Of a DNA stretch of 64,000 bases, positions 7,652 to 41,300 are shown one piece after another (position 1 is the stretch's first letter; each line of letters begins with the position of its first letter). Position numbers and translations under genes: made by a program. Where the stretch lies: contig OZ316894.1 of the NCBI GenBank assembly GCA_973895155.1, positions 7,650,234 to 7,714,233 on the forward strand, written 5' to 3'. The notes beneath the pieces are model-generated. The model saw only the letters and a program-made list of their open reading frames with translations. It ran no database searches and had not been told where the DNA came from. This DNA is from Marsupella aquatica. Lineage: Eukaryota > Plantae > Marchantiophyta.

Positions 7652-10158
7652 TTAGAAACATAGAGTCACGGCTTTGAGAATCTCGTCCGCGCTAGACACC
7701 TCAAAGTTTCCACCCTCCTCCACCAATGCTCTCTTTACCTTGAGATTATCCACATACAGTGCATAGCGACGGGAGCGCACCCCCATACCCTTTTCTGTCA
7801 GGTCGAACTCCATACCCAATGCCTTGGTGTAAACAGCTGAGCCGTCCGCCAAGAAATTGACAATGTCTTTGTTTGGAAAGTCCTTGTTCGTGTCAAAAGT
7901 ATTTGCCCATTCCTTCATGACAAACGGGTCATTCACTGCAAAGTTGATTTCAACATAAACACTTGTAAAACTAGGAAGCCTGACAGGTCACCGGCTTGTT
8001 GAATCTCGAGAAATGTAATGTAGCTCAATATCACTCGCAATTTGTTAAATAGGTGCCTGCTTCATACTATCCATCAAAATCAATTCTACTCTCTCAAATT
8101 GTCAAGGCAAAGATATGGTACAAATTTGCCACGAGGATTTTCAGTCTCGAAAAAGTAATTAGCGACAACCAGTGTATGCTCCAGATCGTTGATATCATAC
8201 GGAAGCAACACTGTCCACATGATGGACATCCTTTGAGTTAAGTTTCAGGGTTCAGGAGCTAGACGAGTATCTCTGCAGACCATATTAATCAAAGAGTCTT
8301 GAACCTATATGACGGAATGTGCTTAGTCAGTCAGAAAAATATTTTCTTCTTGAACTCAATCTTTGAAAGGCTTGATAAAGTACCTGATACGCATAAGATG
8401 TGAGCCACACCCTTCTCTTTAAGTTCAGGTCCCTTCTCGATAAAGCCTGGGACGTGCTTCAAACTGCAGTTGTAAATTGGGTTGTGTAAATCTATCACGT
8501 ACGTGATCTGTGTTCGTCATGATTTTTCACAGATTATGAAATCCCTTGAAATTAATTCCACAAGAATCGCTCTACTATATGTGCTGGGTGACTGTTCAAT
8601 TTATGTCGGTCGTCGTGTTTCCTAGAAATCTCTTGTAGCTCCAACAGCAATGCATTTATTGACTGGAGTGTCAGAATGCTATGATGCTGACTGATTTCAA
8701 ATGTTACAAACATAGTTGTATGATTGTCTAGGACTGGATCATCAGCACTGCTACATTGTTTTGAAATCCGAAAATTCTGGCACATCCATGCTCTACTAAT
8801 CCGGTGAGCATGGTCACCATAAGCCCATTGTCCAGGTTCATTGTCTCGAAAGTGAACCGAGCTGAAGACAAAATTTTGGCACATCCATGCTCTACTAATC
8901 CGGTGAGCATGGTCACCATAAGCCCATTGTCCAGGTTCATTGTCTCGAAAGTGAACCGAGCTGAAGACAAAATTTTGGCACATCCATGCTCTACTAATCC
9001 GGTGAGCATGGTCACCATAAGCCCATTGGCCAGGTTCATTGTCTCGAAAGTGAACCGAGCTGAAGACAAATAGCAGGGGATCTTGAAGCTCACTTGGCTC
9101 CAGCAAGTACTAACAGAAGCTATGAGTACCTCGGTTACCGAGGTAGCCATTGATTTCAAGGAATTCCTAGTAAAAAAAAAGGAAAACAATTTTTTTCAAA
9201 GGGGGAGAATAAACCAGAGCCTGGCTTGGCTAGAGATGTTCATATTAAATATCTAGATTCATCTCATTCAATGCGAGACTGGTCCATAAAGAAAGGGCAC
9301 CAGATCTTTCATTTAGCCCCCGATTGACTGCATGGCCACAATCACAGATTTGCCTTGACGATCGGATCTAATCTCTGAACCGCATAAGTGACTAGAAATC
9401 TATGTGAAAAGGAAGCTCAACCCTGTGATCTGGAGATCTTTACTGTAGAGTTTTGTGACAGGAACGAGAAATTGGCAACAACATGCCAAGGCTAGAGCTC
9501 AACCGTCGACATAGACTGGGAGGGACATTCAACAACGAATTTAACCTGAAGAGCAAAAGGGCGTGACCCAAAAACAAAATGTAGCGGGACTCCTGAACAA
9601 CTAAGCAATTCTGGACGAGAATATGCACTGCAGGAGAGACAATGGACTTTTGCAGAATATGACAATCATACTCTGTAGGATAAAAACAACAGTGTGTTAA
9701 AGAAGGCATCCCAACAGTGTCTGACCTTGCAGTTGTACCGGTAGAACCGAGTGAACTCGCACTTAATCTGTCCATCTTAGACAGACGGCCTTGCATACAA
9801 TACGAGAGATCGCAAGTAGCGCGATCGATGTTCTTTTATTACGTACAACACGAATAACGGAGAGAGATTATGACGGAGAGTTGATGCATGATCATTGTCC
9901 TTTAGACTCCGTTTGCCCTACACCTCGACGAGTGAGGCCTGGTCAGAGAGATATTTCATTGCCTCCATACGGAATCCCGTCGCACAACTGTATACACAAT
10001 TACCTGCATGTTGGAGTGAATGCCCCGGGGACTCCGAAGATGACGATCTTCTTGCACTCTCCTAGCGAATGCATAGTTACCTTCTGCAGCGTGCCCGTGT
10101 CATCTATGTAAAGCAGCGTCCCGTCCGGAATCTTATCAAGCTCGCAGATTGGAGGCAT
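7652..10158 (-). CDS. PRXII: Type II peroxiredoxin (cytosolic PrxII-like). Exons 10158-10004, 8463-8384, 7935-7652
   Basis: MPPICELDKIPDGTL...[26 protein letters not shown]...ILCVSVNDPFVMKEWA...FLADGSAVYTKALG...GVRSRRYAL; peroxidatic Cys motif PGAFTPTC; intron phases match. Confidence 0.95.
8771..9070. repeat. Three near-identical 99-bp tandem repeats in PrxII intron 1
   Basis: Unit aaaattttggcacatccatgctctactaatccggtgagc...gctgaagac starts at 8771, 8870 and 8969. Confidence 0.95.
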
Positions 10159-21174: not shown

Positions 21175-21305
21175 GTTCTGTTTTGCAACCTGCCACTATA
21201 AAAGCCTCATTCCATGTCTCACTATTCACCATGAAAGGTGGAACACTAGCACTTTTGGTGGAGTACTTACCAAAAAAAGTTTTGCAATCAGCACCTTTTG
21301 TGAAG

Positions 21306-21478
21306 CTCAAAGTACATTTCTGAACTTCTACTCCTTAGAATGAGAACTACGGGTTACCCGTAGCCCTTTATAGGGGCAGGTGTGGAGTATGGAACTCAAA
21401 ACACATTTCTGAACTTCTACTCCTTAGAATGAGAGTTACGGGTTACCTGTAGCCCTTTATAGGGGCAGGTGTGGAGTC
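21306..21478. repeat. ~89-bp tandem duplication containing the palindrome ctacgggttacccgtag
   Basis: acatttctgaacttctactccttagaatgaga..tacgggttacc.gtagccctttataggggcaggtgtggagt x2. Confidence 0.88.
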
Positions 21479-22943
21479 TGGACGTCCCATGACCTGTTCT
21501 GCTGGTGATTGTTTTTCGTTTGCTTGTATCAAATAAATATGAAGTGGACCTTGCCTCGGCTAAATTGGCAATAGCAAGCTAGTGTCACAAAATTTCTCAC
21601 CGCCTTGGCTGTTTCCATGGCCAGTGCATATGCTCTTAACAGGCACAGTAGTAGTACTGTCTGTAGGTTTGTAGAGGTCCTCTATTGTGGTTTTGATGTA
21701 CTGCTATCCTACGTTCGATTACTGCTATGCATTAGTGTGGTGGAACTCACAAGAGAACAAATTTATGGTCGATCATTAGGGAAACCTTGGATTAGCTTGA
21801 AATTTTGACTTGAGTTTCTCTAAGCAAGAATCTGTGTTTGCTGCAATTGGGTTTGTTTTGGGGAAAGCAAAGGGACACCGAACCCCAACATTCACGGCAA
21901 GCGGCAAAGATTGGTGCAACTTGTTGCAACTTCCTCTCGAGATGAAGTGGCTGAACAACAATGGCACACATATAGAGCTGTAGGAGGGGTATTTTTGTAA
22001 GTAGGTGAAGTTTGAGGATCCTTTCATAATTCTGACACTTGAACTTTTTGTAAAGTTTATGAGCCTTTTGGTCCAAGTTTTCTGAAATTATGGAAATATT
22101 TTACCTAACTGACTGTAAATGCACATCGGCAGTGCATTTTGCACCCTGGGTGCCTGGGTGACAGTCCAAAAGCTGCATAAGACAAATTTTAAATCCAACA
22201 AAAGTACTAACGTTTTTGCTCACCGGAATTAAACTGCTGCACTACTCATCCATTTGAACAAGAAATTCATTTCTTAGTGTTATTTTTTATTAATCTATAG
22301 GAGATTAACAAGGGACTTACTTTTATATTATTTTGAAATGTGTAGTCACACTCTTATTAGTTGTCTTTGAGACTATTTAAACATGATGATATTTGTAATC
22401 ACACCCTTATTAGTGTATGTGAGACTATTTAAGCATGATGATACTAATTACCTGTAGAGTATGCTTCACTCTGTAGAGTATACTTTTGAGTTTTGATCTC
22501 GTTTGGTTGATTAGATATGGAGGATTTGCTTGATCAGACCCCAGAAATGAAATGTTTTATTTGGCAGGACCCTGAGTGATCCAGACCATTGATTGACATT
22601 GAATCAATGTACACAAAATTTCAGGGTCCTGTGAAGTAATTTGTTTTGGGGTATGATCAAGCAAATCCTTCGTTAGATATGCACCCGCGTGACTTGTGTG
22701 GGCTGACAGTATGTAAATGTCCTCCCGCGTGACATGGACTGTTAGACTGTCAGCCATCCCCGCGTCCTACCCCCGCTGTTACAACGACACGCGTGTCTTG
22801 CGTCGACTGCGGAGAGACTAAAGCCATCGCCAAATGCTGCCCCGCCGTTTCTCGCCACGATAGAGCAGAGCAGCGAGGAGAGAACAGAAGCGCGGTGAGC
22901 AGAAATCGATTCGATTCGATCGACGAAAGCTCGAGGAGAAACT

Positions 22944-24941: not shown

Positions 24942-25172
24942 TGAATGTTTCCACGGATGGTCCGCTCTTTCTCGAGAGCCCGTAATCAAAAGACCATAAG
25001 TTCAGGCTACTTTCAGCTCTTTGTCGAGAGATGGGAAAAAACCATAAGTTCAGGCTATTTTCAGCTCTTTGTCGAGAGATCGTAAGGAAAGAAACCATAA
25101 GTTCAGGCTATTGTCAGCTTTTTGTCGAGAGCTAGTAAGGAAAAAACCATAAGTTGAGGTTATTGTCAGCTC
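24942..25172 (+). repeat. Left long inverted repeat with four ~45-57-bp subrepeats (accataagttcaggctattttcagctctttgtcgagag)
   Basis: Direct reading; pairs with 36089-36320. Confidence 0.9.
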
Positions 25173-26911
25173 TCAGCTTTATCAGAAACTCCAACCACAT
25201 AACAAGTGTCACACTGGTTCCCAGAGAGAAGTGTCGCTGGAGCGGGGAGATTCAATTCTGCTCGACATCGAGGAAGCAGCAGAGACGGGAGATGCATCTG
25301 GAAAGAGGCAAGCGACTTGGTGGTAACCGAGTATGATTGCCTCGCCTTTCAGGTCTGCTGTCGTCTCCAACCTTGGCTCCGCAGTGAGCACTGGCAGGAG
25401 CAGAGCACGTAGTGCCGTGGTTGGCTCGTCTTTAACCTCGTACATTCGTGGCGTTCCCGCATTGGAGAAGCCGTTTGATCTTAGGGAAATGCCCAGCGCT
25501 CCAACAATATATGAAATGCGATGAAGCCCGTAACTATTCGTCGACACTCTCTCTGAACACCAATCATTGACGGAACCAAAGCATCATTTGCCAATGGCTC
25601 CTTCTCTATTAAAGTATATGTGAGGTTTCTTGTGAATGCACCATGAAGGACTAAGCTCAAGCATCTCTACGAGCGGATTCGCCGAATAAATAACCCCTTG
25701 CCATTTATGCAATTTCCTGTAATAATTCTGATAACAAATTCTGAAGCGTTACTAAGCAGTTGCTCTAAATGAAGGCCCTAGGAAACTCCAATCACAGAAC
25801 AAACGTGACTTTCGTCGGCAAACCAAACACCGGAAGTGCTCTGAAAGAAGGCCCGTTTGTCGAGGAAGAGTGCGGACGGGGTTCATCCTGTTTAGATTTT
25901 GGTCGGTTACTTCTAGTGCTCATACATTGCAATGGTAGCGCTGATGAGCTCATTTTGGTGCTCGTTCCTTTACTAGGTTTGATGAAGTTTTTAGCGTTAA
26001 TGCTATTTTCCTTTACAAGGTTCGATGAAGTTTAGGGTTAATGCTGTTTAGATTAAATTGGCCACCTCTTGAGGGAAGTGGGGACCACTTGTGGGCCACC
26101 TGTGGGGACCACTTGTGGGGAGCACCTGTAGGGTGCCCTCTGCCTTACAGCAAGGCAACCCCAAGGTGTCACATACGGAGCCGGAGTAGCAGCTACTCCG
26201 TTGGCCCCGCACCCTGGAGAAGATTAGACTGTGTCAATGTTGATCGTCCCCTAACCAGAAGAACTGATTAGAGCGGGGATTACATATGATCTCAGCCAAA
26301 TGGGAGAAGGGGGCACTCTCTATTTAAACCACAGCTGCCAGTATAAGAGGCTACGGGTTACCCGTAGCCTCTCATTATACACAGAGGCAAGTCGCATTTC
26401 GCTAGGATCCGGAAAAAACGGAGGCACGCGGGCAGGATTGCCTTGGGGCAGCCCGGCTAGACAGCCGGGCTTCGCAGGCCTTCTTACCGGGTTGATACAT
26501 GTTTAGATACAGATGGGTCCGCAAATACAGGCATGACGTTTAGATAGCACATTGGTTGCATCGTCCCCTGCGAATCGAGACGTCGTGAGTTCAAAACTCT
26601 GCTTATTTTGGCTCTACGCTTGTGCGAAGGCCTTTGGCCAGGACGGGGTGGATGGGCAAGGAGATTCCCTGAGCAGGAGGGGGTCGGTGAAGTCTCCGAA
26701 CTCACCAAACACCTGGTGACCTTGGCAGGATCAACGACACTTGGCGAGGGGAGGGCTGGCGCTTATGTGAGAGGGTGAGAGTTGATGGCCGCGCCGCAAG
26801 GAATGCCCAGGAAAGGAAAGCAAGCACTGGCATGACGGACACCAGGTGGAGAGAGCTTTTCTAAACTAAATAAATGGTCATATACTACTGGATTCCGATT
26901 TCAGTCGAACA

Positions 26912-26983
26912 GCCCGCATGGCTCTACTGGTTGTGGCCCTCTTTGGAGCGCAGGAGATCCTGGGATCGAGCCTCAGCGGCGCC
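26912..26983 (+). other. Degenerate tRNA-like / SINE-head-like segment
   Basis: A-box-like tggctctactgg and B-box-like ggatcgagcc at tRNA-like spacing; no convincing cloverleaf. Confidence 0.3.
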
Positions 26984-27302
26984 GATGGTTGCGCGGCCCT
27001 TTCTTTTTGAATCTTGTCACTTACGGGAGAGCGGAGGTAGGTGGAAGGACCAGGGTGCCTCCTGCACTACCCTTGGCTGAAGCTGGCGCTGCGCTTCAGT
27101 ATGAATACAAGTACTTACTCACAATTTCCGAACAGTCCGGACGACTTCTTGGTAGTGCGTTTCCTTTGCGGGTGAGAGGTGCCGAGTTCAACGTCGGCAG
27201 GCGTTGTTGCATACGCGTTACATTTTGTGGCGCACAAGGTGCAAAGGATTGTGCACTACACAGCCGAAAGGAATGTGCCTAGTAGTATTGAAAGGAACGT
27301 GT

Positions 27303-27390
27303 GTCGAAAGGTCCAACGTGTGCTACAGTCGAAAGGTCCAACGTGCGCTACAGTCGAAAGGTCCAACGTGCGCTACAGTCGAAAGGAACG
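27303..27390. repeat. 25-bp minisatellite (about 3.5 copies)
   Basis: gtcgaaaggtccaacgtgygctaca repeated. Confidence 0.9.
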
Positions 27391-27540
27391 TGAGTTACAT
27401 TTTACCGTCATTTCAATTGTAAGTGCATGGTCGGAAGTGGGGGAGGCTTTCAACATTTCAATTGTAAGTGCATGGTCGGAAGAGTGGAGGCTTTCGACAA
27501 TCTCCGTGTTTTTTAAATCATTTTTTTTTAAACTGACCGA

Positions 27541-28366
27541 CACTCATGAGTAGGGGGCTAGCTACATTAGTGTTTTGACAATTATCTGCTTTTTCTAAAT
27601 TGTGCAGAGTCACACTCATGAGTAGGGGGCAAGCTAGTATTTTGACAATTATCTGCTTTTTCTAAATTGTGCAGACTTGTAGAAGAAGGAGAGTCCTCTC
27701 GGCTCTCAACAATGTGACTGTGTTTTTAGAGAGAATTTGCGCTTGGTATGTGAGGAAGAGCTAAGATAAAGTATAATGGGGAGACCATGAGATAAAACCT
27801 ATATCAATTGGCCACAACATAAAAGGGGAATGAAGAGCGAATGATTGAATCCTTTACATTATTTATGCACTGGTCACTACATAGTTTTTGTTGCATGTTA
27901 TTATTTTTATATTCACATACTTTGCACACTTCTATGTTTGACATCTGTTTAGAGTCACACTCATGAGTAGGGGGCTAGCTACAGTAGTGTTTTGACAATT
28001 ATCTGCTTTTTCTAAATTGTGCAGAGTCACACTCATGAGTAGGGGGCTAGCTAGTGTTTTGACAATTATCTGCTTTTTCTAAATTGTGCAGACTTGTAGA
28101 AGAAGGAGAGTCCTCTCGGCTCTCAACAATGTGGCTGTGTTTTTAGAGAGAATTTGCGCTTGGTATGTGAGGAAGAGCTAAGATAAAGTATAATGGGGAG
28201 ACTATGAGATAAAACCTATATCAATTGGCCACAACATAAAAGGGGAATAAAGAGCGAATGATTGAATCCTTTACATTATTTATGCACTGGTCACTCTACA
28301 TAGTTTTTGTTGCATGTTATTATTTTTATATTCACATACTTTGCACACTTCTATGTTTGACATCTG
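27541..28366. repeat. ~418-bp near-identical tandem duplication directly upstream of the transposase ATG; each unit has an internal ~70-bp duplication
   Basis: cactcatgagtagggggctagctac...ctatgtttgacatctg at 27541-27947 and 27958-28366. Confidence 0.93.
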
Positions 28367-28425
28367 ACCTTTTTTCCAGCTCATGAGATTTTAGGCAAAT
28401 GCGGTAAAGACTATATTTGTGCACC

Positions 28426-31400
28426 ATGTCTACAAAGGATGACCCACGTCATCGTGTCTCAGACCAGCGGAAGCGGCCCCCTCAACGTGGTGGCCTTCCT
28501 CGGAAAAAATACCCTAGTGATGATATAGACTATAAGAGGCTTCGGAGACCGGATGCAAGGCCTGCAATCCGAGTCCCGCTTCACTTGTGGAGTGAATGGG
28601 AGGAATTGAGAGTTTTACTTGGTGATGAACATACTACACACTCAGCTGTCATTGAGTGGTTGTTTCATGAAGTGCGAGATAGGGTTGAGCATTTGAGGAC
28701 ATGGCAAGCAGCGCCCGCTAGAATGCTACAAGATGAACTTGCATTAGCGACAGACATTGGAGCATCGTCAACCTTTATGAATCCTAGGAGCAGTCAATGT
28801 TCAGAGGATCATTACCAGGATACAAATTTACATGATGTATGTTTAAATAGATAATTTTGTTATGTCTTTATATGTTTGTTTTTCATCTAGAACAGGCATA
28901 CAAGATTTTAATCTTTCTTGCAAATAAAATTTCCTTTTTTGAAACTTGTGCTGTCTTCGGGGCTGTCTTGGGATAAGTTTCTCTTGGGGTTTGTAGATGT
29001 GGACTTTTTCAAGCCCTATTTTCCAAAACAATAACCAGTCCATAATGCTATTACATGTGTGGCTACTTTTGACAGAGTCAACAATCTGTAACAAGTGATG
29101 CACAAGTGGAAGAGGAAGAGGAATTGCAAGAGCATATTGTTGAACAATATTCATCAGATGCAGAGGATGAAGCCATGTATCGAGATGAAGATACAACCGT
29201 TCATTATGCTTTAGGAGCTCCCATACATGAGGATGTTGTGGAGGAGGTGCAACAACTTACATTCCCTACACATTTCTTTTTTCAAAGCATACTCTATTTT
29301 CACATATCACACTTTGTGTGTTTATTTCAATTCTTCTAACTATGTAAATATTTGTATTGAACTAGGAGGATGTAGTCTTGGATTCTCAATCACCAGAACG
29401 ACCTGCCTTGCAACCATCAATAGTTACAAACTCACAATCAATACCACCTAGTACCTCTGACCCACCAGTTTCACGTAGGTCTCTACCTCGTCGACCAGCT
29501 ACAATAGCATTTTTTGAGCGACACTTAATTCATAATTTTGTTCAAAGACTACTTCCTAGGTGTCATATACCTGCATGTTCATTGACTCCTATTGTGGAGC
29601 GTATTGGAGAGTTGCAACAAGTGTGGTCTATTAGGATTAGTTGTGGGCAAGCTGGACATGGGTGGACGTTTGTGACTGGTGAGAATGAGTCGGGAAGGAA
29701 TTCACCATTGATTACTCCTATGCTATATCATTCCACTTTATGTGCTGGTCTTACATTTACAGCTCTAGCCGCATTGACATCACATTTAGGTTTGCATGTC
29801 CCTTCTGCAACCCATTGGCATGATTTTCAAAGTGGAAGACGACGACCTCAAGCAGGATGGATAGATGCTGTAAAGCAGCAATGGGAGGTAAACAAAAGTG
29901 AGGTGTGGGAAGATGTAAAAACTCGACTCCAGCAGCAATGTGCACCTCATGAAGGTTTGTAAATGAAACTATTATACAAGAAAATTAAGCTTATATATAA
30001 CTTAGTTAACTTGTTTCAATGAGGTTTGTACAACAAAAGCATGTTTTATTGTTATTTCGTAGTTTTGCTCTAACATGAACAACCTTTACACATTGGACTT
30101 TGATTGAATAAATTTTAGGTTTTTTGTGAATAATTTTATACCCAACATCATATATTCTTGGTTTTCTTGCAGATCCTGGACTAGTTGTGTTTCTAGATTG
30201 TCGTTGGGATTCTTCTCGGAGTGGGTATCATGGTACTTCTTCTATCATTGATAGCTACGATAATAGGGTCCTTCAGATGACCACTGTAAGTAGAAGAGAG
30301 GAGAGAAACTCTTGGTACATGGAAGAAATTGGGGCAAAGAGGGTACTAGATAGTCTCACGGATGCGGGAGTTGTTATAAAAGAGGTTATCCATGATGACA
30401 AAAGTACCATTGATAAAATCATTGAGGACATGGGATTTATAAACCAGAAGGACTTATGGCACAAGGCTAAAAATTTGGTGAGGAAATTTGTGGACAAGTT
30501 GGCAAGTGCCACATTTACCCTAACTGTTGACATAGACACTGTGACATCTCGCTCTGATTTGCAAGCAGTTACAAATAAAAAGTTGAAAGACTGGTTGAAG
30601 GATAGGGGTATTAGAGGTTACTCTAACTTGAGAAAGGAAGCGTTAATTCATCGAGTTGCGGATTTGCGTGGGCTTCCTGAGGAGGAGCTTGTACACATTG
30701 CCACCCGTGGTCTCAAGTTTCCAGAGTTAGCGGAGCATAATTTGGCAAGCAAATTTAAGACCTGGTTCTATGTGTGTTCAAGAACATGTAAAAACAGGTG
30801 TGCCATATTACAAAAGTATTGCACATTGCTTGAAATGCTACCTTGATTTATATAATCTTTGGAATACCTTGATAGATATTTTATAGATGAAAATTAATTT
30901 ATAGCTTGTTTATAAAAAAATTTCTCACTACTTTGCAATGCAGGAGTGGAGACAGTGAATCCTTGGCTTTTGAGTTAGGGAATTGTGCAGATCATTGGGC
31001 TGGTGACCATGAAAAGTGCATGACACTATCTGATCGGCCTTGTCAGCATCTTGGAGAATCTAATGCCTTACAATTGGACTTGTACTATGAGAGAGGTAAA
31101 ACAAATACTGTGCCACAAATATTCAATGATTTTGCATTGAGACAAATTCATATTATGTTTTGGATGTTGCATGACATAGTAATTATAAGATAAATAACCA
31201 GTTTTTCTTTTGGATGCAGATGGGGAAACTCACAAGGCCATGAAAGCTTTCATGACCAAGTACATAAAGCCAGAAAAAATGCGATTTTATACCATGGCTC
31301 GTGAGAACTTTATGTCTGAAACATTCCATTCTGTAATGGGCAAGTATGCCATAAAGCGTATTCATTTTCCAGCTACTCACGATGCGCGTTTATGTTGTAC

Positions 31401-31566
31401 TGCTATGGACTGGAATGAAAATATTAGGAGACATGTTTGGAAGGTTCGTGATCGTCGAGCAGTAAACACAGTTGTTCGTGATAGACCCTCTCGTTCACGA
31501 GTATTAGTGGATCGTACCACAAGTTGGAAGGAGCAAACAAGTCTACGTATCTATGGAGTACCTTAG
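28426..31566 (+). CDS. DDE transposase, Kolobok-like, 764 aa. Exons 28426-28836, 29076-29246, 29366-29954, 30173-30797, 30944-31095, 31220-31566
   Basis: Five GT-AG introns, all phase-compatible, no internal stops (2295 nt). Motifs: RCHIPAC...SCGQAGHGW (Zn-binding), VFLDCRWDSSRSGYHG (D1), EVIHDDKS (D2), QKDLWHKAK (DxxH), ADHWAGDHEKC, MSETFHSVMGKYAIKRIHF...ARLCCTAMDWNEN (E). Confidence 0.85.
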
Positions 31567-32491
31567 ACCTAAACCAACATATATGAGGTAATTATATTTT
31601 GCCTATACAATAACATTTGTTTTTGTTTAGAGACATTGGATTGAGGGTGGGTTAAATGACTAGATACCTCAGTTTTTATGTATGTTGACAAGTGGTCTAA
31701 TTGTTTCATGAATTGATTGTATGTTATAATTGCAGAGGGTTGTTTCTTTGAAGACATGCAAGTAAGACCTGGGGATGTTTTACTTCCATTATGTTGTAGG
31801 GGGCACTTGGATTTTTTAGTATTTAGCATGTAGAGCATTGTAACACACTGATGCAACTTTTGTCTCATAATATGAAAAGGTTTTACCTTTCCCACTATTT
31901 GTTTGTTATTGATTCCAAATTTGTTGAAGATATAAATTTTGTCCAATATAACAAAAATATGGTACATAAAACCCTAATTTGTACACACAATTGTTTGGTA
32001 AGTAACACAAATCTTCTATAGAGAAATAAAACACAAAATGTTATTATGATAAAACAGACTATGCTTTGAATGTGTGTATCCAAGGTTGGAGAACCAACCA
32101 TTCCCTAGACAAGCTTTTTCTTTTGGTATATGGGGTGTACTGCCAAACTAAAATGGATGAGAAAAGTTCATATGTGAAAAGTTTCCCAACAGAATACTCA
32201 CAACATAGGTACAATTGAGTTGACAATTACTCCCAAGGGGGTTTGAACCCCTTTTTGTTGCCATCCAACAGGAGTTCCAACCCTAAGGATAAGGAAGGAG
32301 GCACAGGCCAAAAAAATATTAAATATGCTATAACAAATAACCCAGATAAATCCTATACTTGACAGAGTTAAGAAACGCTGAAGAAAGAGATAAAGTAAAA
32401 GAGAAGAAAAGAGAAGCAAAAAGTTAAAAACACATAAAACAACCAAGTACAAACCCAACTCCAAAATATGAAGAACAAAGTATCAACCATG

Positions 32492-32864
32492 CTACTCGCC
32501 AAGTGTCTTCCAGGTGGCATGTATGGCAGATGTAAGATTCCCTGGAAGGGCTGTCGGTTCCAAGAATTTGGCAACTGATGCCAATTTCTCAGAAACAACA
32601 TGACGCTGACGAGAAGGAATGGCCTCAACATAAGACCAAGCCGCACACATGTGGAAGACTTCAGCATGCAATGGAGAATGAAGAGCAGCGTTGAGTTCAA
32701 CAAGGTTGTTGTCAATGGCCTCACAAAATGCTAAGAACTTTGCAACAATATCATCATGCCTCAAAAGAAGAGCCCTCCTTTTCTGAGGTGGAGTGACCGG
32801 CCATGTTAAACGATACAATCCCCCACCGTAGGATACCATCTCTGCAGGTCTATTTGGATCCTCC
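32492..32864 (-). CDS. KolX-like accessory protein, paralog 2 (main exon; N-terminal exon structure uncertain)
   Basis: Aligns by eye with paralog 1: DDIVAKFLAFC / DEIRSDFPEFC, MCAAWSYVEAIPSRQRHVVSEKLA / ICAAYSYVDSVMKRKRYQVYTHLA, LPGNLTSAIHATW / FPDAVEAVIKATW; T-rich tract plus TAG acceptor precedes 32864. Confidence 0.65.
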
Positions 32865-33463
32865 CTACACATGGTATGCCACAAAAAATAGCTGCAATTG
32901 GTAACAAATAATGAAAACAATGGATAGGTAATGCAGCAAAATATCATGAATAAGAATTGACAAAGCAAAGATGAAATGAACCTTAGATAATTCATGTTGC
33001 CCGAAACGAAGAAGGTTAGGTTGGAAACCAAGCTAAGTACAAGGAAGACTAAAACATATGCATACATATGCATACATAGAATGAAAAAACTTTGGAGTGA
33101 GAATGAGTAGAAATAATTTCATTACCACTTTGGGGTAAGATTGAGGACATGCTATGTTTAGAAGCAATAGCGACCAATCCTGCATTTACACAGGCCTTGG
33201 TTCTCACTTGACCCATACTTGGGGCTTACACAACCCTTGGCTCATACTTGGCCCATACTCAGCCCATACTCGGCCCATACTTTTGGCATGGAATAACTTA
33301 TTACACCTAGGGACCAAAAGAGGTGGATTTTATTATCACGTGTGTGAGCAAAATACTCCCAAGGGGATTTGAACCCCTTGTGCTGCCGACCAGCGAGAGT
33401 TCAATCCCAAAGAAGGGATTTATTTATATTATAAGTAAGCAAAGGACATTACAATATGATAGA

Positions 33464-34101
33464 CTAATATGGACGAAATCCTACAAATTCCTCATGTGGG
33501 TCATGCCATGTTGCTTTGATGACTGCTTCCACTGCATCTGGGAACTTTGTTCGCTCTGCATAACCACATACCCAAGCCAAGTGCGTGTACACTTGGTAGC
33601 GTTTCCGCTTCATCACACTATCCACATAACTATATGCAGCACAAATCAATATTTGTTCCAAAGGTACAACAGGATTGAGTGCATTGTGATATTGTGTGAC
33701 GACACGACAAAACTCAGGGAAATCAGATCGGATCTCGTCTAAGTTTGTCCTACGTTGGATGGGAGGAGCCTCGTGTTCAGCTTGGGCATTGTGCCAAAGC
33801 AATACAAAGGACCCATCATCGCATTGATTCAATGTGACCTTGGTCCTGTGCTTGTTGGCCATTGTTCGCGGACTGCCATAAAGAAAGTAGATGTTAGTCA
33901 AAGTCAAGGAGTGGAATGACATAACAACAATTTGAGGTAAAACAATTACCTCAAAGTATCACAACTCCTATGTTTGTTGCCAACTATCATCAATTGTTGT
34001 GAAGGTTTCATAAAAGGAACTGTCCAATAACGCCAATCTTTTTTGACATGTTGATTGCAAGCCATGACCAACGTGACGATCCTGGTTCCATCTTCTTCCA
34101 T
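33464..34101 (-). CDS. KolX-like / P2X7-ballast-like accessory protein, paralog 1, ~186 aa. Exons 34101-33950, 33872-33464
   Basis: Phase-2 GT-AG intron joins MEEDGTRIVTL...CDTL to SPRTMANKHR...; the C-terminus RYQVYTHLAWVCGYAERTKFPDAVEAVIKATWHDPHEEFVGFRPY fits the R..AY.....W..G...R..LP.C....IR..FP.P...Y.GF pattern. Confidence 0.65.
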
Positions 34102-36088
34102 TTGCAAGCACAAAACTCTGAAAAAGTAAACATTTCAACCAGAAGGTCACGATGATACTCTCTATAGTGGAACTCAAGCTATAGTAGTACAATAAAGGGG
34201 GACCAGTTGATGTGGAGTAAGAATGGAATCACCCAACCCTTGGGTGAGAACCTGAAATGGTCGTGAGGGTAAGCACCGAGTAGCCTTCCTCCTCCTCTCC
34301 CTCGGCACGCAAACTATCCCGGCACGCAAACTATCCTTCCTCTTCCTGAAATAGTTGTGAGGGTAGGACCAACTATCCTCCCTCCTCCTCTTCCCTCGGC
34401 CTCGGCGTCACGAATTGAGTTTGTACCTTTGAAAAAATATTTGGAGACAAGGTACAGTCAGAATTTTATCCAACAACGAGGGCTCGATGTCCCAACAAAT
34501 TTTGCTGTCGGTAGACACGATGATGTTGTCGACACTGCAGTTCAGCAGGCGCCGCAAGGAATCAAAAAGAAATTGAATTCACATGTAGCTGATGACAGTC
34601 CCTGGTGACAACACCATGAGTGGAACTAGTTCCAATTCAACTAAAACGCAGCCGAATGTAGTGAACGATGCCAATCCGAGTAGCAAGATTGATTGATCCA
34701 AAGAAATTTGGAAGAAAAAGGTGGCGACAACTTTCGGGAAGCAACTGTGTATGAGTGGAAAAGCTCAAGGGAGGGCTGGGCAACGGCAACAACTTTCGAG
34801 AAGCACTGTGTATGAGTGCAAAAGCTCAGGGAAGGTCTGGTCAGCGACGCGCTACGTAATCACTCAAAAATGAGGGGAGAGATGGGCGTAAGCACTGGCT
34901 TCGTCAAGTGCTGTCGTCTGGACTACATTTTCACTCACACAGTTTCATGTGTCGGCCGAGCTCCCTGCTCTACATCCAGGTCCACCTCCTACTCCTTCAT
35001 ACGTTCATAAGGACAGACACTTGTGAGAGCAAGAGACATTGCCCAAAATTCCCACGAAGGAGCTCCCTGCTCAGTGAAAATTTCCGCGCCGATGATTCTG
35101 TCCGTGCAGCCTCGTCTTGTTTTCAAGCAGTTGTAGAGGATCGGCAGAATTGGAAAGATTCAAGTCGGCATGAAATTCTCAGTCGAGCAGAGTTATCGAG
35201 AGGCTGGAGGTCGCCGGAGGAGAGCAAAGAATCCTGTCAAAGGGCGTCATTATGGAGAGGGCTCGAACTTAGAAGCGAATGCGCAGCCCGAAGGTTGTGA
35301 GATGACAAACGAGCTGTTTGACGTCATACCAAACTGGATGAATTGACGCACAGGCAGCAATTGATGCACTTGGATTACAACATTAGGTATTAATTTATGA
35401 CGCGGTGCTCAGTGAAGCTCAACAAAAAGCTCTGGGAACGAACAATAGTCTAAATCTTGGTTTTAAACCCTTGGGAGGCTCTTGACCGGACTTGAACGTA
35501 TCTTATGAGTGAATCATAAGATCATAGAAGCTGTTCCAAATACATCAACCAGGCAGGATGGGGTCTCGGAATCCTAGAGTGATACGCCTATCCGAATCAG
35601 CTGGATGGCCAAGAGTCAAAGGAGGAGAAGAAGATGCAGTGTCGGTACTCGTGGTGCCAAATTGGAGTAGCTCATGTAGCTCATGGTCGATCGACTCACC
35701 TACTAATCGAAGGAAGGCAACATCTTCTCTAGGATCGAGTAGCTCATCGTCGACTGCTTATGGAATTGTGTAGAAACGAAGGTCCCAGATTTTCTGGGTG
35801 ACAGGCAACGCGAGGAATGATGACTGAACTTTTGATTGTAAGTTGCAGCTATGGAGATTCTACAGTACTGATGTGCAACGAAGAACACCACAGCCCAGCG
35901 TGAGCGTTGGAGGCAGCGTTGGAGAGGAATGAGGATCACTTGCCGGGTTGGAGAGGATTGCGGATCACTTGCCGGGCCGCGGAGCTATTCACCCGGGATC
36001 ACTATACATCCGGGCAGCAAACAATGATGAGCCGGGCAGACCACGGGCCCTTTTATACTGGCAGCTGTGGTTAGTACCTTAGGGAAGT

Positions 36089-36320
36089 GAGCTGACCACA
36101 GCCTCAACTTATGGTTTTTTCCTTACTAGCGCACTCGACAAAATGCTGACAATAGGCTTAACTTATAGTTTTTTCACTACCGTCTCTCGACAAAATGCTG
36201 AAAATAACCTGAACTTATGGTTTTTTCCAATCTCTCGACAAAAAGCTGAAAATACCCTGAACTTATGATCTTTTGATTACCAGCTCTAGAGAAAGAGCGG
36301 ACCATTAGTGAGAAAATTCA
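36089..36320 (-). repeat. Right long inverted repeat; contains TAGTG (CACTA on the minus strand) at 36306-36310
   Basis: Reverse complement of 24942-25172 with scattered mismatches. Confidence 0.9.
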
Positions 36321-40949: not shown

Positions 40950-41300
40950 TCACCATCAATCTTCAACCCTTGACCATGGGTAAGTTAAACTCTCAACTGT
41001 TCCGCAACCTTCAACCCCCTTGACCACTGTGAGTCAAACTCTCAACCGTCAACCCCTTCAAGCCTTGACCATGGCAACATTCAACCCTTGACCTTGGGTG
41101 AGTCAAATTCTCAACTGTCTGGCAACCGTTAACCCTTGACCACGGGTGAATCAAACTCTCAACCCTCCACCGACTCTCAACCGTGCCGTGTCAACCTTCA
41201 ACCCTTGACCATGAGCGATTCAAACTCTAAACCCCAGACTAAACCCTCAACTCTGCACCATCAACGGTCAACCCCCACACCTTAAACCCTTTACCACATG
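40950..41300. repeat. Degenerate minisatellite built on caacccttgaccatgggtgagtcaaactctcaac
   Basis: About six diverged copies, C/A-rich. Confidence 0.8.

Follow-up and report, generated by a model that had tools for sequence, protein, structure and literature searches.

A probable green-plant lineage of Kolobok-type DNA transposons in the genome of the liverwort Marsupella aquatica

Kolobok DNA transposons have been recorded from animals, fungi, chlorophytes, rhodophytes and protists, and no embryophyte stands among the hosts named in the accessible text of Kojima and Bao (2022; PMC9587614). According to the same text, a zinc finger that separates the C/DxxH motif from the catalytic E is given for Kolobok transposases (except Kolobok1) and not for those of MuDR, P and hAT. 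In the Kol0 lineage (Kolobok-1_XT, -2_DR and -1_NV, as far as the accessible text of PMC9587614 describes them), a D-D-DxxH-E core lacking a CCHC finger after the first D is combined with this zinc finger, short terminal inverted repeats (TIRs), a TTAA target and a second small gene, and an N-terminal THAP domain is listed for the Koloboks of Xenopus (PMC6004289). These Kol0 traits, other than THAP, are shared by an element located at 26327-36072 in a stretch of 64,000 nucleotides of the Marsupella aquatica genome (assembly GCA_973895155.1, contig OZ316894.1, positions 7,650,234 to 7,714,233, forward strand), which is hereafter called the window and supplies all coordinates. On the other hand, the element adds an SAP domain after DxxH, a TCP/RHH-like N-terminus replaces THAP, its termini read AC..GT if TTAA is taken as the target, its small proteins lack the seven zinc-binding cysteines and are encoded with two paralogous exons, and its land-plant host is absent from the above list. 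It is very probably a 9.75-kb multi-copy DNA transposon with a Kolobok-type spliced transposase, belonging to an undescribed green-plant lineage that was inherited from algae and moves by cut-and-paste into TTAA.

The 9.75-kb element is bounded by 24-bp TIRs that are complementary at 23 of 24 positions, and a 19-base piece of the TIR has two matches in the window, with none expected from 100 shuffles. Evidence for further copies comes from the contigs of four runs, which carry two organism labels, stem from two studies and perhaps include the source of the window itself. Between 83 and 88% of the element's words are present in these runs. Related empty sites, in which sequence like the left flank is joined directly to position 36073 with a single TTAA, occur in all four (1, 3, 1 and 3 contigs); because these contigs differ from the window at 5-7 letters, they represent paralogous copies of the host repeat. 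TAAG follows position 36072 in diverged copies from three of the four runs (2, 1 and 1 contigs), corresponding to at least two independent sites. A TTAA duplication is thus seen at the family level, with one TTAA in the empty site, TTAA at the left junction and a right-end TTAA in other copies. Contigs identical to the right end reach about 3.5 times the depth of the junction contigs (58 versus 16 in run X3 and 103 versus 28 in run X4, depth being a rough guide). Summed contig depth rises across the element to a maximum over the coding exons, where diverged subfamilies align. Among 15 of the 59 joints, five fall within predicted introns, five in the intergenic non-coding stretch and one across the intron of the small gene, and four touch exons. 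Among ten rows within the element, out of 156 indel rows in all, five are non-coding, one is an in-frame triplet in exon 1, two in exon B together restore the frame, and two shift the frame in exon A of diverged copies. The element is therefore mobile and multi-copy, with near-identical copies in runs of both organism labels. At the left end a CRE-like word is present 208 bp into the element, with none found at the right end. In the region 35988-36063, a contig with seven differences has a depth of 543 in run X1 and of 60 in run X3, both labelled organism A; this gap perhaps reflects a non-autonomous subfamily of differing abundance, or a library effect. The tandem duplication of 417 bp at 27540-28366 could change the promoter or the 5' untranslated region of the transposase gene.

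The transposase gene is predicted to comprise six exons with GT-AG introns on the plus strand, giving a stop-free product of 764 amino acids. With introns 3-5 fixed, introns 1 and 2 allow 110 stop-free choices that yield 717-787 amino acids, and 764 is therefore one plausible, non-unique length. Introns 3-5 have good GT-AG borders and a GC content of 26-28% versus 42-45% in the exons, and annotated proteins of Calypogeia span introns 4 and 5 in register with the spliced model. Introns alone are no sign of plant adaptation. The catalytic motifs (D399, D465, DxxH at 484-487 and E683) are conserved across the family, as are the zinc-finger columns between DxxH and E (H616, H, C624, C). An earlier note, made from the letters of this DNA alone, had described the six-exon open reading frame of 764 residues with D, D, DxxH and E motifs; both the frame and these motifs (at residues 399, 465, 484 and 683) were recovered, the length being one of the above options.

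A search of 1.84 billion proteins with a three-row profile (the window protein and its Calypogeia relatives) returned 116 homologues at E<=0.001. The 764-residue model aligns with P0008 over residues 26-753 (32%), with P0006 over 296-750 (40%) and with P0005 over 436-761 (45%). Compared with four Kol0-like proteins, the family profile scored 99.6% in hhalign (E 3e-24 over 313 columns), and its D, D, DxxH and E are aligned with theirs; these rows are homologues matched by eye to Kolobok-2_DR, -1_NV and -1_PiPr (Data S5 of PMC9587614), not the Repbase sequences themselves. Together with the TIRs, copies and empty sites, this match bears out the description of an apparently intact Kolobok-like transposon at 26327..36072 given in the earlier note, which had also proposed the empty-site comparison. 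Three proteins of the Kolobok-16_CGi type gave 97%. By eye, Kolobok-16_CGi, Kolobok-1_OwFu and Kolobok-1_MyEd, as given in Data S5 of PMC9587614, share D-x-R-[HW], H-D, [NK]-D-L-W-H and D-H-[YW]..[ND]-H..C with the element, but they have no SAP insert and the profile match covers only the first 165 columns. Kolobok was already known from green and red algae through Kolobok_1_KlNi, Kolobok_1_MicRcc299 and Kolobok_1_CCri, all listed in Data S5. In that list, KlNi and MicRcc299 have a CCHC finger following the first D and lack a long insert behind DxxH, and thus form another lineage, and CCri carries a RecQ helicase. In a structural search with a model of P0008 (56 rows, pLDDT 78), the first fold matches were the transposases of the P element, Hermes and ISCth4, all of the RNase H fold (ISCth4: Z 13.0, root-mean-square deviation 5.4, 261 aligned), and piggyBac ranked 30th (Z 6.6). 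We take KlNi to be Klebsormidium nitens. The piggyBac transposases are DDD enzymes. They also target TTAA and lack C/DxxH in the accessible text of PMC9587614; the element differs from them in having both DxxH and E.

Ten of the 116 homologues were looked up: four are from Riccia sorocarpa, one from Calypogeia fissa, two from Chara braunii and one from Closterium, one is a cluster (P0025) bearing both Pyramimonas and Prorocentrum labels, and one has no name. The Pyramimonas or Prorocentrum label of P0025 is perhaps a cross-contamination, and its host is uncertain. By eye against Data S5 of PMC9587614, seven weak homologues (E 5e-5 to 8e-4 only) resemble animal Koloboks; about seven others are repeat proteins with no relation to the family. 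A tree of Kolobok-like rows was built from 36 of 38 rows (two were dropped for coverage) with the SAP columns removed. It splits a green group from the animal-like rows (support 96/87) and makes the window transposase sister to the Calypogeia fissa protein (100/99; 57-67% identity), which by itself makes a liverwort host likely. Liverwort monophyly was not rejected by the approximately unbiased test (p 0.51), nor is it demonstrated by it. A word search returned one relative, from Calypogeia, whose cluster mate spans intron 4 in register. Word-index protein searches gave no match for exon 4 among 1,398 candidates from the longer proteins and none for gene A (one candidate), and metagenome and viral scans gave no such element, the viral locus L001 matching no more than 28 residues, where the SAP region begins.

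Retention from green-algal ancestors probably fits better than transfer from animals, given that the closest relatives carry the names of liverworts, Chara, Closterium and the Pyramimonas-labelled cluster. The earlier note had offered both origins; retention is the part that gains from these relatives, and acquisition from animals fits less well. The competing view would be an ordinary Kol0-type Kolobok, with a THAP-DDE transposase and a zinc-binding KolX protein, transferred horizontally from an animal, fungus or protist. Kol0-like proteins are indeed the best match among the Kolobok-like groups (99.6% versus 97%), the two genes have the convergent layout, and the last 27 residues of gene A align with the KolX of piggyBac-2_GrCh. 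This view is nevertheless improbable, as the relatives that share the SAP insert bear names from Chara, Closterium and two classes of liverworts and form one group against the animal-like rows (96/87), the animal-like matches have E values of 5e-5 to 8e-4 only, exon 1 gives no THAP match and the small proteins hold no cysteine clusters. Recent horizontal transfer is thereby already largely refuted, and an ancient transfer into the green lineage is possible.

The SAP domain lies in an insert of about 70 residues after DxxH, inside the catalytic core. PF02037 (SAP) matches 11 of 37 scanned homologues, the family profile matches solved SAP domains (best E 7e-4), and the long spacing is found in 10 of the 12 matches that carry both flanking motifs. 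In the alignment with the Kol0-like profile, a gap stands opposite the insert. P0096 groups with the green family on a long branch and is devoid of both the SAP insert and the zinc finger. Four members from Riccia sorocarpa (P0006, P0009, P0011 and P0045) are annotated in UniRef as 'SAP domain-containing protein', that is, transposases are counted as host genes.

Several points weigh against placing the element in a green Kolobok lineage. The right junction of the window copy is without two bases (TA), and a full target-site duplication is absent here; since contigs from X3 and X4 are identical to this junction without a single difference, the missing TA is real. The junction of the element family reads TTAA-ACCAC..GTGGT-TTAA or, equally, T-TA-AACCAC..GTGGTT-TA-A, so that 5'-RR..YY-3' termini and a 4-bp TTAA duplication do not occur jointly: a TTAA duplication leaves AC..GT termini, and AA..TT termini leave a 2-bp TA duplication. 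Because the end rules do not hold jointly, it is the transposase that decides the filing as a deviant, non-canonical Kolobok lineage. Further, no Pfam transposase family matches any exon, and PF20700 matches 5 of the 37 scanned homologues, one of them above its cut-off. The host range is a lower bound, since 10 of the 116 homologues were looked up and non-plant members may hide among the rest. The tree places the family only relative to Kolobok-like rows, without MULE, hAT and P outgroups; the deep order among green hosts is unresolved in it, and Closterium branches first, unlike the host order. Finally, the KolX identity of the small genes, treated below, is weak.

The ends and the domain set could instead indicate a new DxxH superfamily, sister to Kolobok, MULE, hAT and P, that generates a 2-bp TA duplication inside a T-TA-A target: the end rules of Kolobok are not jointly satisfied, the window copy sits between TTA and AG with no net duplication, the combination of TCP-like and SAP domains is unique and Pfam offers no match. 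However, the profile match to Kolobok-like proteins is continuous through the whole core and the C-terminal KR-F..AR..D-N motif, the zinc finger between DxxH and E is a Kolobok trait in the accessible text of PMC9587614, and KolobokP, with duplications of 3-5 bp, is already filed in Kolobok; a new superfamily accordingly receives very little probability. A further reading, either a plant MULE or a transposase gene that has been domesticated and is now immobile, has also been considered, since distant homologues match PF20700 ('Mutator-like') weakly, as also seen in the ESM Atlas (scores 0.80-0.90), the best structural match is ISCth4 of the IS256 family and the Riccia copies are annotated as host SAP proteins. 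MULEs have long TIRs and 9-11-bp duplications; the element differs from them and from MuDR in its 24-bp ends and TTAA junctions. Moreover, the PF20700-positive proteins P0105 and P0109 read as Kolobok-like, the element occurs in several nearly identical copies and at other insertion sites, an empty site exists, and the multiple flanks refute domestication, so that this reading is hardly credible.

Three features had escaped the earlier note: the window copy lacks an intact target-site duplication, an SAP domain is inserted in the core, and the N-terminus carries a TCP-like domain. The last is a conserved domain of 70 residues in exon 1, predicted to fold as beta-alpha-alpha. The whole-protein profile gave a weak match to TCP15 (E 0.45), and after this hint N-terminal profiles built without TCP input were searched against 177,635 sequences. 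An 11-row profile listed TCP15 first (E 3.2e-4). Six diverse rows including P0025 did so at E 8.7e-6, with all five TCP sequences listed, among 11 rows, and the same diverse rows without P0025, which had joined the profile after its TCP likeness was noticed, did so at E 2.3e-4. Class II TCPs match only the profile with P0025 (PCF6 0.033; TCP10 0.28-0.88), and the N-terminus of P0025 itself matches the 11-row profile at no better than E 0.02-0.05 among 122 proteins. The top PDB matches are the TCP domains of AtTCP15 (7vp6/7vp3), OsPCF6 (5zkt) and AtTCP10 (7vp1/7vp2), and the alignment is a single stretch of about 52 residues, nearly the whole domain, that covers the D-R-H loop, the I-R-M-P strand and both helices. 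Of single members, 2 of 15 scanned match Pfam TCP, at E 0.012-0.022 only; the N-terminus from Chara is a borderline case, and for Closterium no such N-terminus was seen. The P0025 piece also matches an RHH antitoxin family (E 0.004).

The TCP fold is RHH-like and binds DNA via an RIR saddle and DRH loops, as far as the accessible text of PMC9841405 describes it. In the element's domain, a complete RIR/RVR saddle and DRH loop were not found: the second R and the hydrophobic residue are kept in most rows, the first R is replaced, and DRH occurs in P0023 only, the window protein having A-I-R-V-P and D-Y-K. Because these residues are only partly kept, the domain is TCP-like rather than a TCP. No class I TCP site was found within the element, no THAP match was obtained in exon 1 or 12 homologues, and the N-terminal profile does not match the Kol0-like and CGi16-like alignments (0.3% and 0.9%). 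On the basis of sequence comparison, homology between the N-terminal domain and the TCP domain is likely, with either direction of descent. TCPs are reportedly older than land plants. A tentative proposal, which we regard as possible but rather doubtful, is that the plant-specific TCP family originated by domestication of the DNA-binding domain at the N-terminus of this green-lineage Kolobok transposase; in this view, the transposon's domain is an RHH-type module linking TCP to the RHH proteins of bacteria. This linking role is proposed because the P0025 N-terminus weakly matches both, and the domestication reading also draws on the presence of the domain in a Pyramimonas-labelled cluster outside streptophytes and on the intact liverwort elements. 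The accessible parts of PMC9841405 contain no word starting with 'transpos' and give no source for the TCP domain, and those of PMC5737466 list bHLH_TCP among land-plant gains.

Convergent to the transposase gene, the earlier note had placed small genes, with a 186-residue protein. The gene for this protein is on the minus strand (34101-33950 joined to 33872-33464) and stands as described, including its C-terminus. Its exon 34101-33950 is in phase with two acceptors, so that joining to exon A gives 186 and joining to exon B 183 amino acids. Exons A and B are 34% identical over 94 amino acids and are followed by similar 63-bp 3' segments, by which a duplication of the last exon is indicated; exon B probably serves as an alternative last exon or belongs to a second gene. 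The same note had related these genes to KolX and to the cytoplasmic ballast domain of P2X7. The ballast domain has three motifs and is found in no plant, according to the accessible text of Rump et al. (PMC7016195). Compared with KolX and the ballast (also called ZCD; PMC7016195), including the cysteine-poor KolX of piggyBac-2_GrCh and -14_PI, gene A shares the spacing of motif 3 at its extreme C-terminus (hydrophobic-P-x6-I-R/K-x2-aromatic-x6-aromatic-x-G), by which the claim is weakly supported; motifs 1 and 2 and the motif-3 cysteine are missing. The four cysteines of exon A are scattered and exon B has three, none of them in the published KolX clusters. With a motif-3 score of 21, gene A is exceeded by 16 of 46,847 window positions and tied by 16 others, and 995 of 20,000 shuffles reach 21 (p ~0.05). 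By eye, its last 27 residues align without gaps to the KolX of piggyBac-2_GrCh (Data S6), with 7 of 27 identical. P2X7 was not listed in PDB sequence searches with the small proteins, which had no match in Pfam either. Fold searches with a single-sequence model (pLDDT 58) gave no clear match and did not list P2X7, which is evidence neither way. The position of the small genes inside a Kolobok-type element raises the odds, and a KolX ancestry is somewhat favoured.

By analogy with the DxxH transposases, a mechanism can be envisaged as follows. A dimer of the transposase would bind the element ends via its RHH-type, TCP-like N-terminal domain, and the RNase H core (D399, D465, E683 and the histidine of DxxH) would excise the element and join it to a staggered cut at TTAA, the repair of which would duplicate TTAA. 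The SAP domain after DxxH likely provides a sequence-independent grip on target DNA or chromatin. The first exon of the small convergent gene is probably spliced to either of the two duplicated last exons, and the products may be accessory proteins, cysteine-less remnants of the KolX C-terminus that act on the transposase or its complex, although confidence in this role is low. The window copy was inserted into an older 1.6-kb repeat and has lost TA at the right junction.

If this is correct, the Kolobok superfamily extends into land plants. A search of the literature on land plants, liverworts, ferns and Chara found no description of this lineage, Repbase and Dfam, which may hold such families, lying outside that search. 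A study of 2025 screened 1007 plant genomes for 17 superfamilies, Kolobok among them; active elements came from seven others only, according to its accessible text (PMC12973397), and its accessible supplements name Marchantia and neither Riccia nor Calypogeia. In the accessible part of a spinach repeat survey, Kolobok is among 67 minor elements and has no description. The word Kolobok is absent from the main text of the Riccia genome paper and from the searchable supplements of the Blasia and Apopellia papers. The lineage is easily missed, as its exons have no Pfam transposase match and annotation presents its proteins as 'SAP domain-containing' host genes; repeat and gene catalogues of liverworts and charophytes are therefore likely misannotated. 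The element also offers a candidate source for the TCP domain, which is a major regulator of plant development and has a bacterial-RHH-like fold. If the reverse holds and a transposon captured TCP, a transposase that binds its ends by a TCP-like module would be a new architecture. An intact TTAA-targeting liverwort element could, moreover, serve as a gene-tagging tool in bryophytes.

Table 1. Features of the element and of its insertion site (window positions; exons are predicted).
Feature	Positions	Strand	Remarks
Host-repeat left arm	24942..25172	+	older repeat, outside the Kolobok element
Left TTAA target copy	26324..26327	+	from the sequence and the empty site
Left TIR	26327..26350	+	24 bp; first base is the last A of the TTAA duplicate or the first base of the element
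Subterminal palindrome within left end	26343..26375		
417-bp tandem duplication, 98%	27540..28366	+	just upstream of the transposase start codon
Transposase exon 1 (predicted)	28426..28836	+	predicted beta-alpha-alpha TCP/RHH-like DNA-binding domain at ~28483-28710
Transposase exon 2 (predicted)	29076..29246	+	acidic linker; borders least certain
Transposase exon 3 (predicted)	29366..29954	+	C-x4-C...C-x3-H zinc-finger-like motif at 29561-29656
Transposase exon 4 (predicted)	30173..30797	+	first D 30196, second D 30394, DxxH 30451, SAP ~30559-30670
Transposase exon 5 (predicted)	30944..31095	+	H-W-x2-D-H-x2-C...C zinc-finger motif between DxxH and E
Transposase exon 6 (predicted)	31220..31566	+	catalytic E 31318; KR-x-x-F...AR...DWNEN
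Last exon B (183-residue product)	32492..32891	-	paralogue of A; stops short of the final G-F motif
Last exon A (186-residue product)	33464..33872	-	weak likeness of the C-terminus to motif 3 of KolX/ballast; zinc-cysteine clusters absent
First coding exon of small convergent gene(s) (predicted)	33950..34101	-	
Right TIR	36049..36072	-	followed by TAAG in other copies, by AG here
Host-repeat right arm	36089..36320	-	87% to left arm

The insertion target is an older multi-copy repeat with inverted arms of 230 bp, which measures about 1.6 kb without the insertion and may be a non-autonomous element of a MULE-like or foldback-like type. Its arms are built of tandem subunits of about 50 bp, no target duplication was recognised around it, and one run contains a copy without 25210-25814. 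A larger unit spanning 24942-36320 was considered as the element and rejected, because empty copies of the host repeat exist and depth drops sharply at 36073. Within the host repeat, 200-250 bp to the left of the insertion, tandem GTGGG-like repeats at 26078-26132 carry two of the four class II TCP consensus sites of the window, possibly by chance. At 21301-21478, each copy of a tandem 89-bp unit contains a decayed, inverted left end of the element (80-82% over 51 bp), which by its sequence is taken as a remnant of a related element. A short element at 22521-22669, whose inverted arms are 26 bp long and at which the runs show many loose contig ends, is likely a high-copy miniature inverted-repeat transposable element. 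Exact look-up of six open reading frames of the window found none of them in the collection searched. The neighbouring genes of the window encode a redoxin, a DUF2985-PLAC8 protein, a catalase and a protein kinase, as expected for a nuclear contig of a land plant. Short tandem arrays at 8552-9195 and 40957-41252 are unrelated to the element, and their units are present in three copies of about 30 codons and in four to five copies of 48-69 bp.

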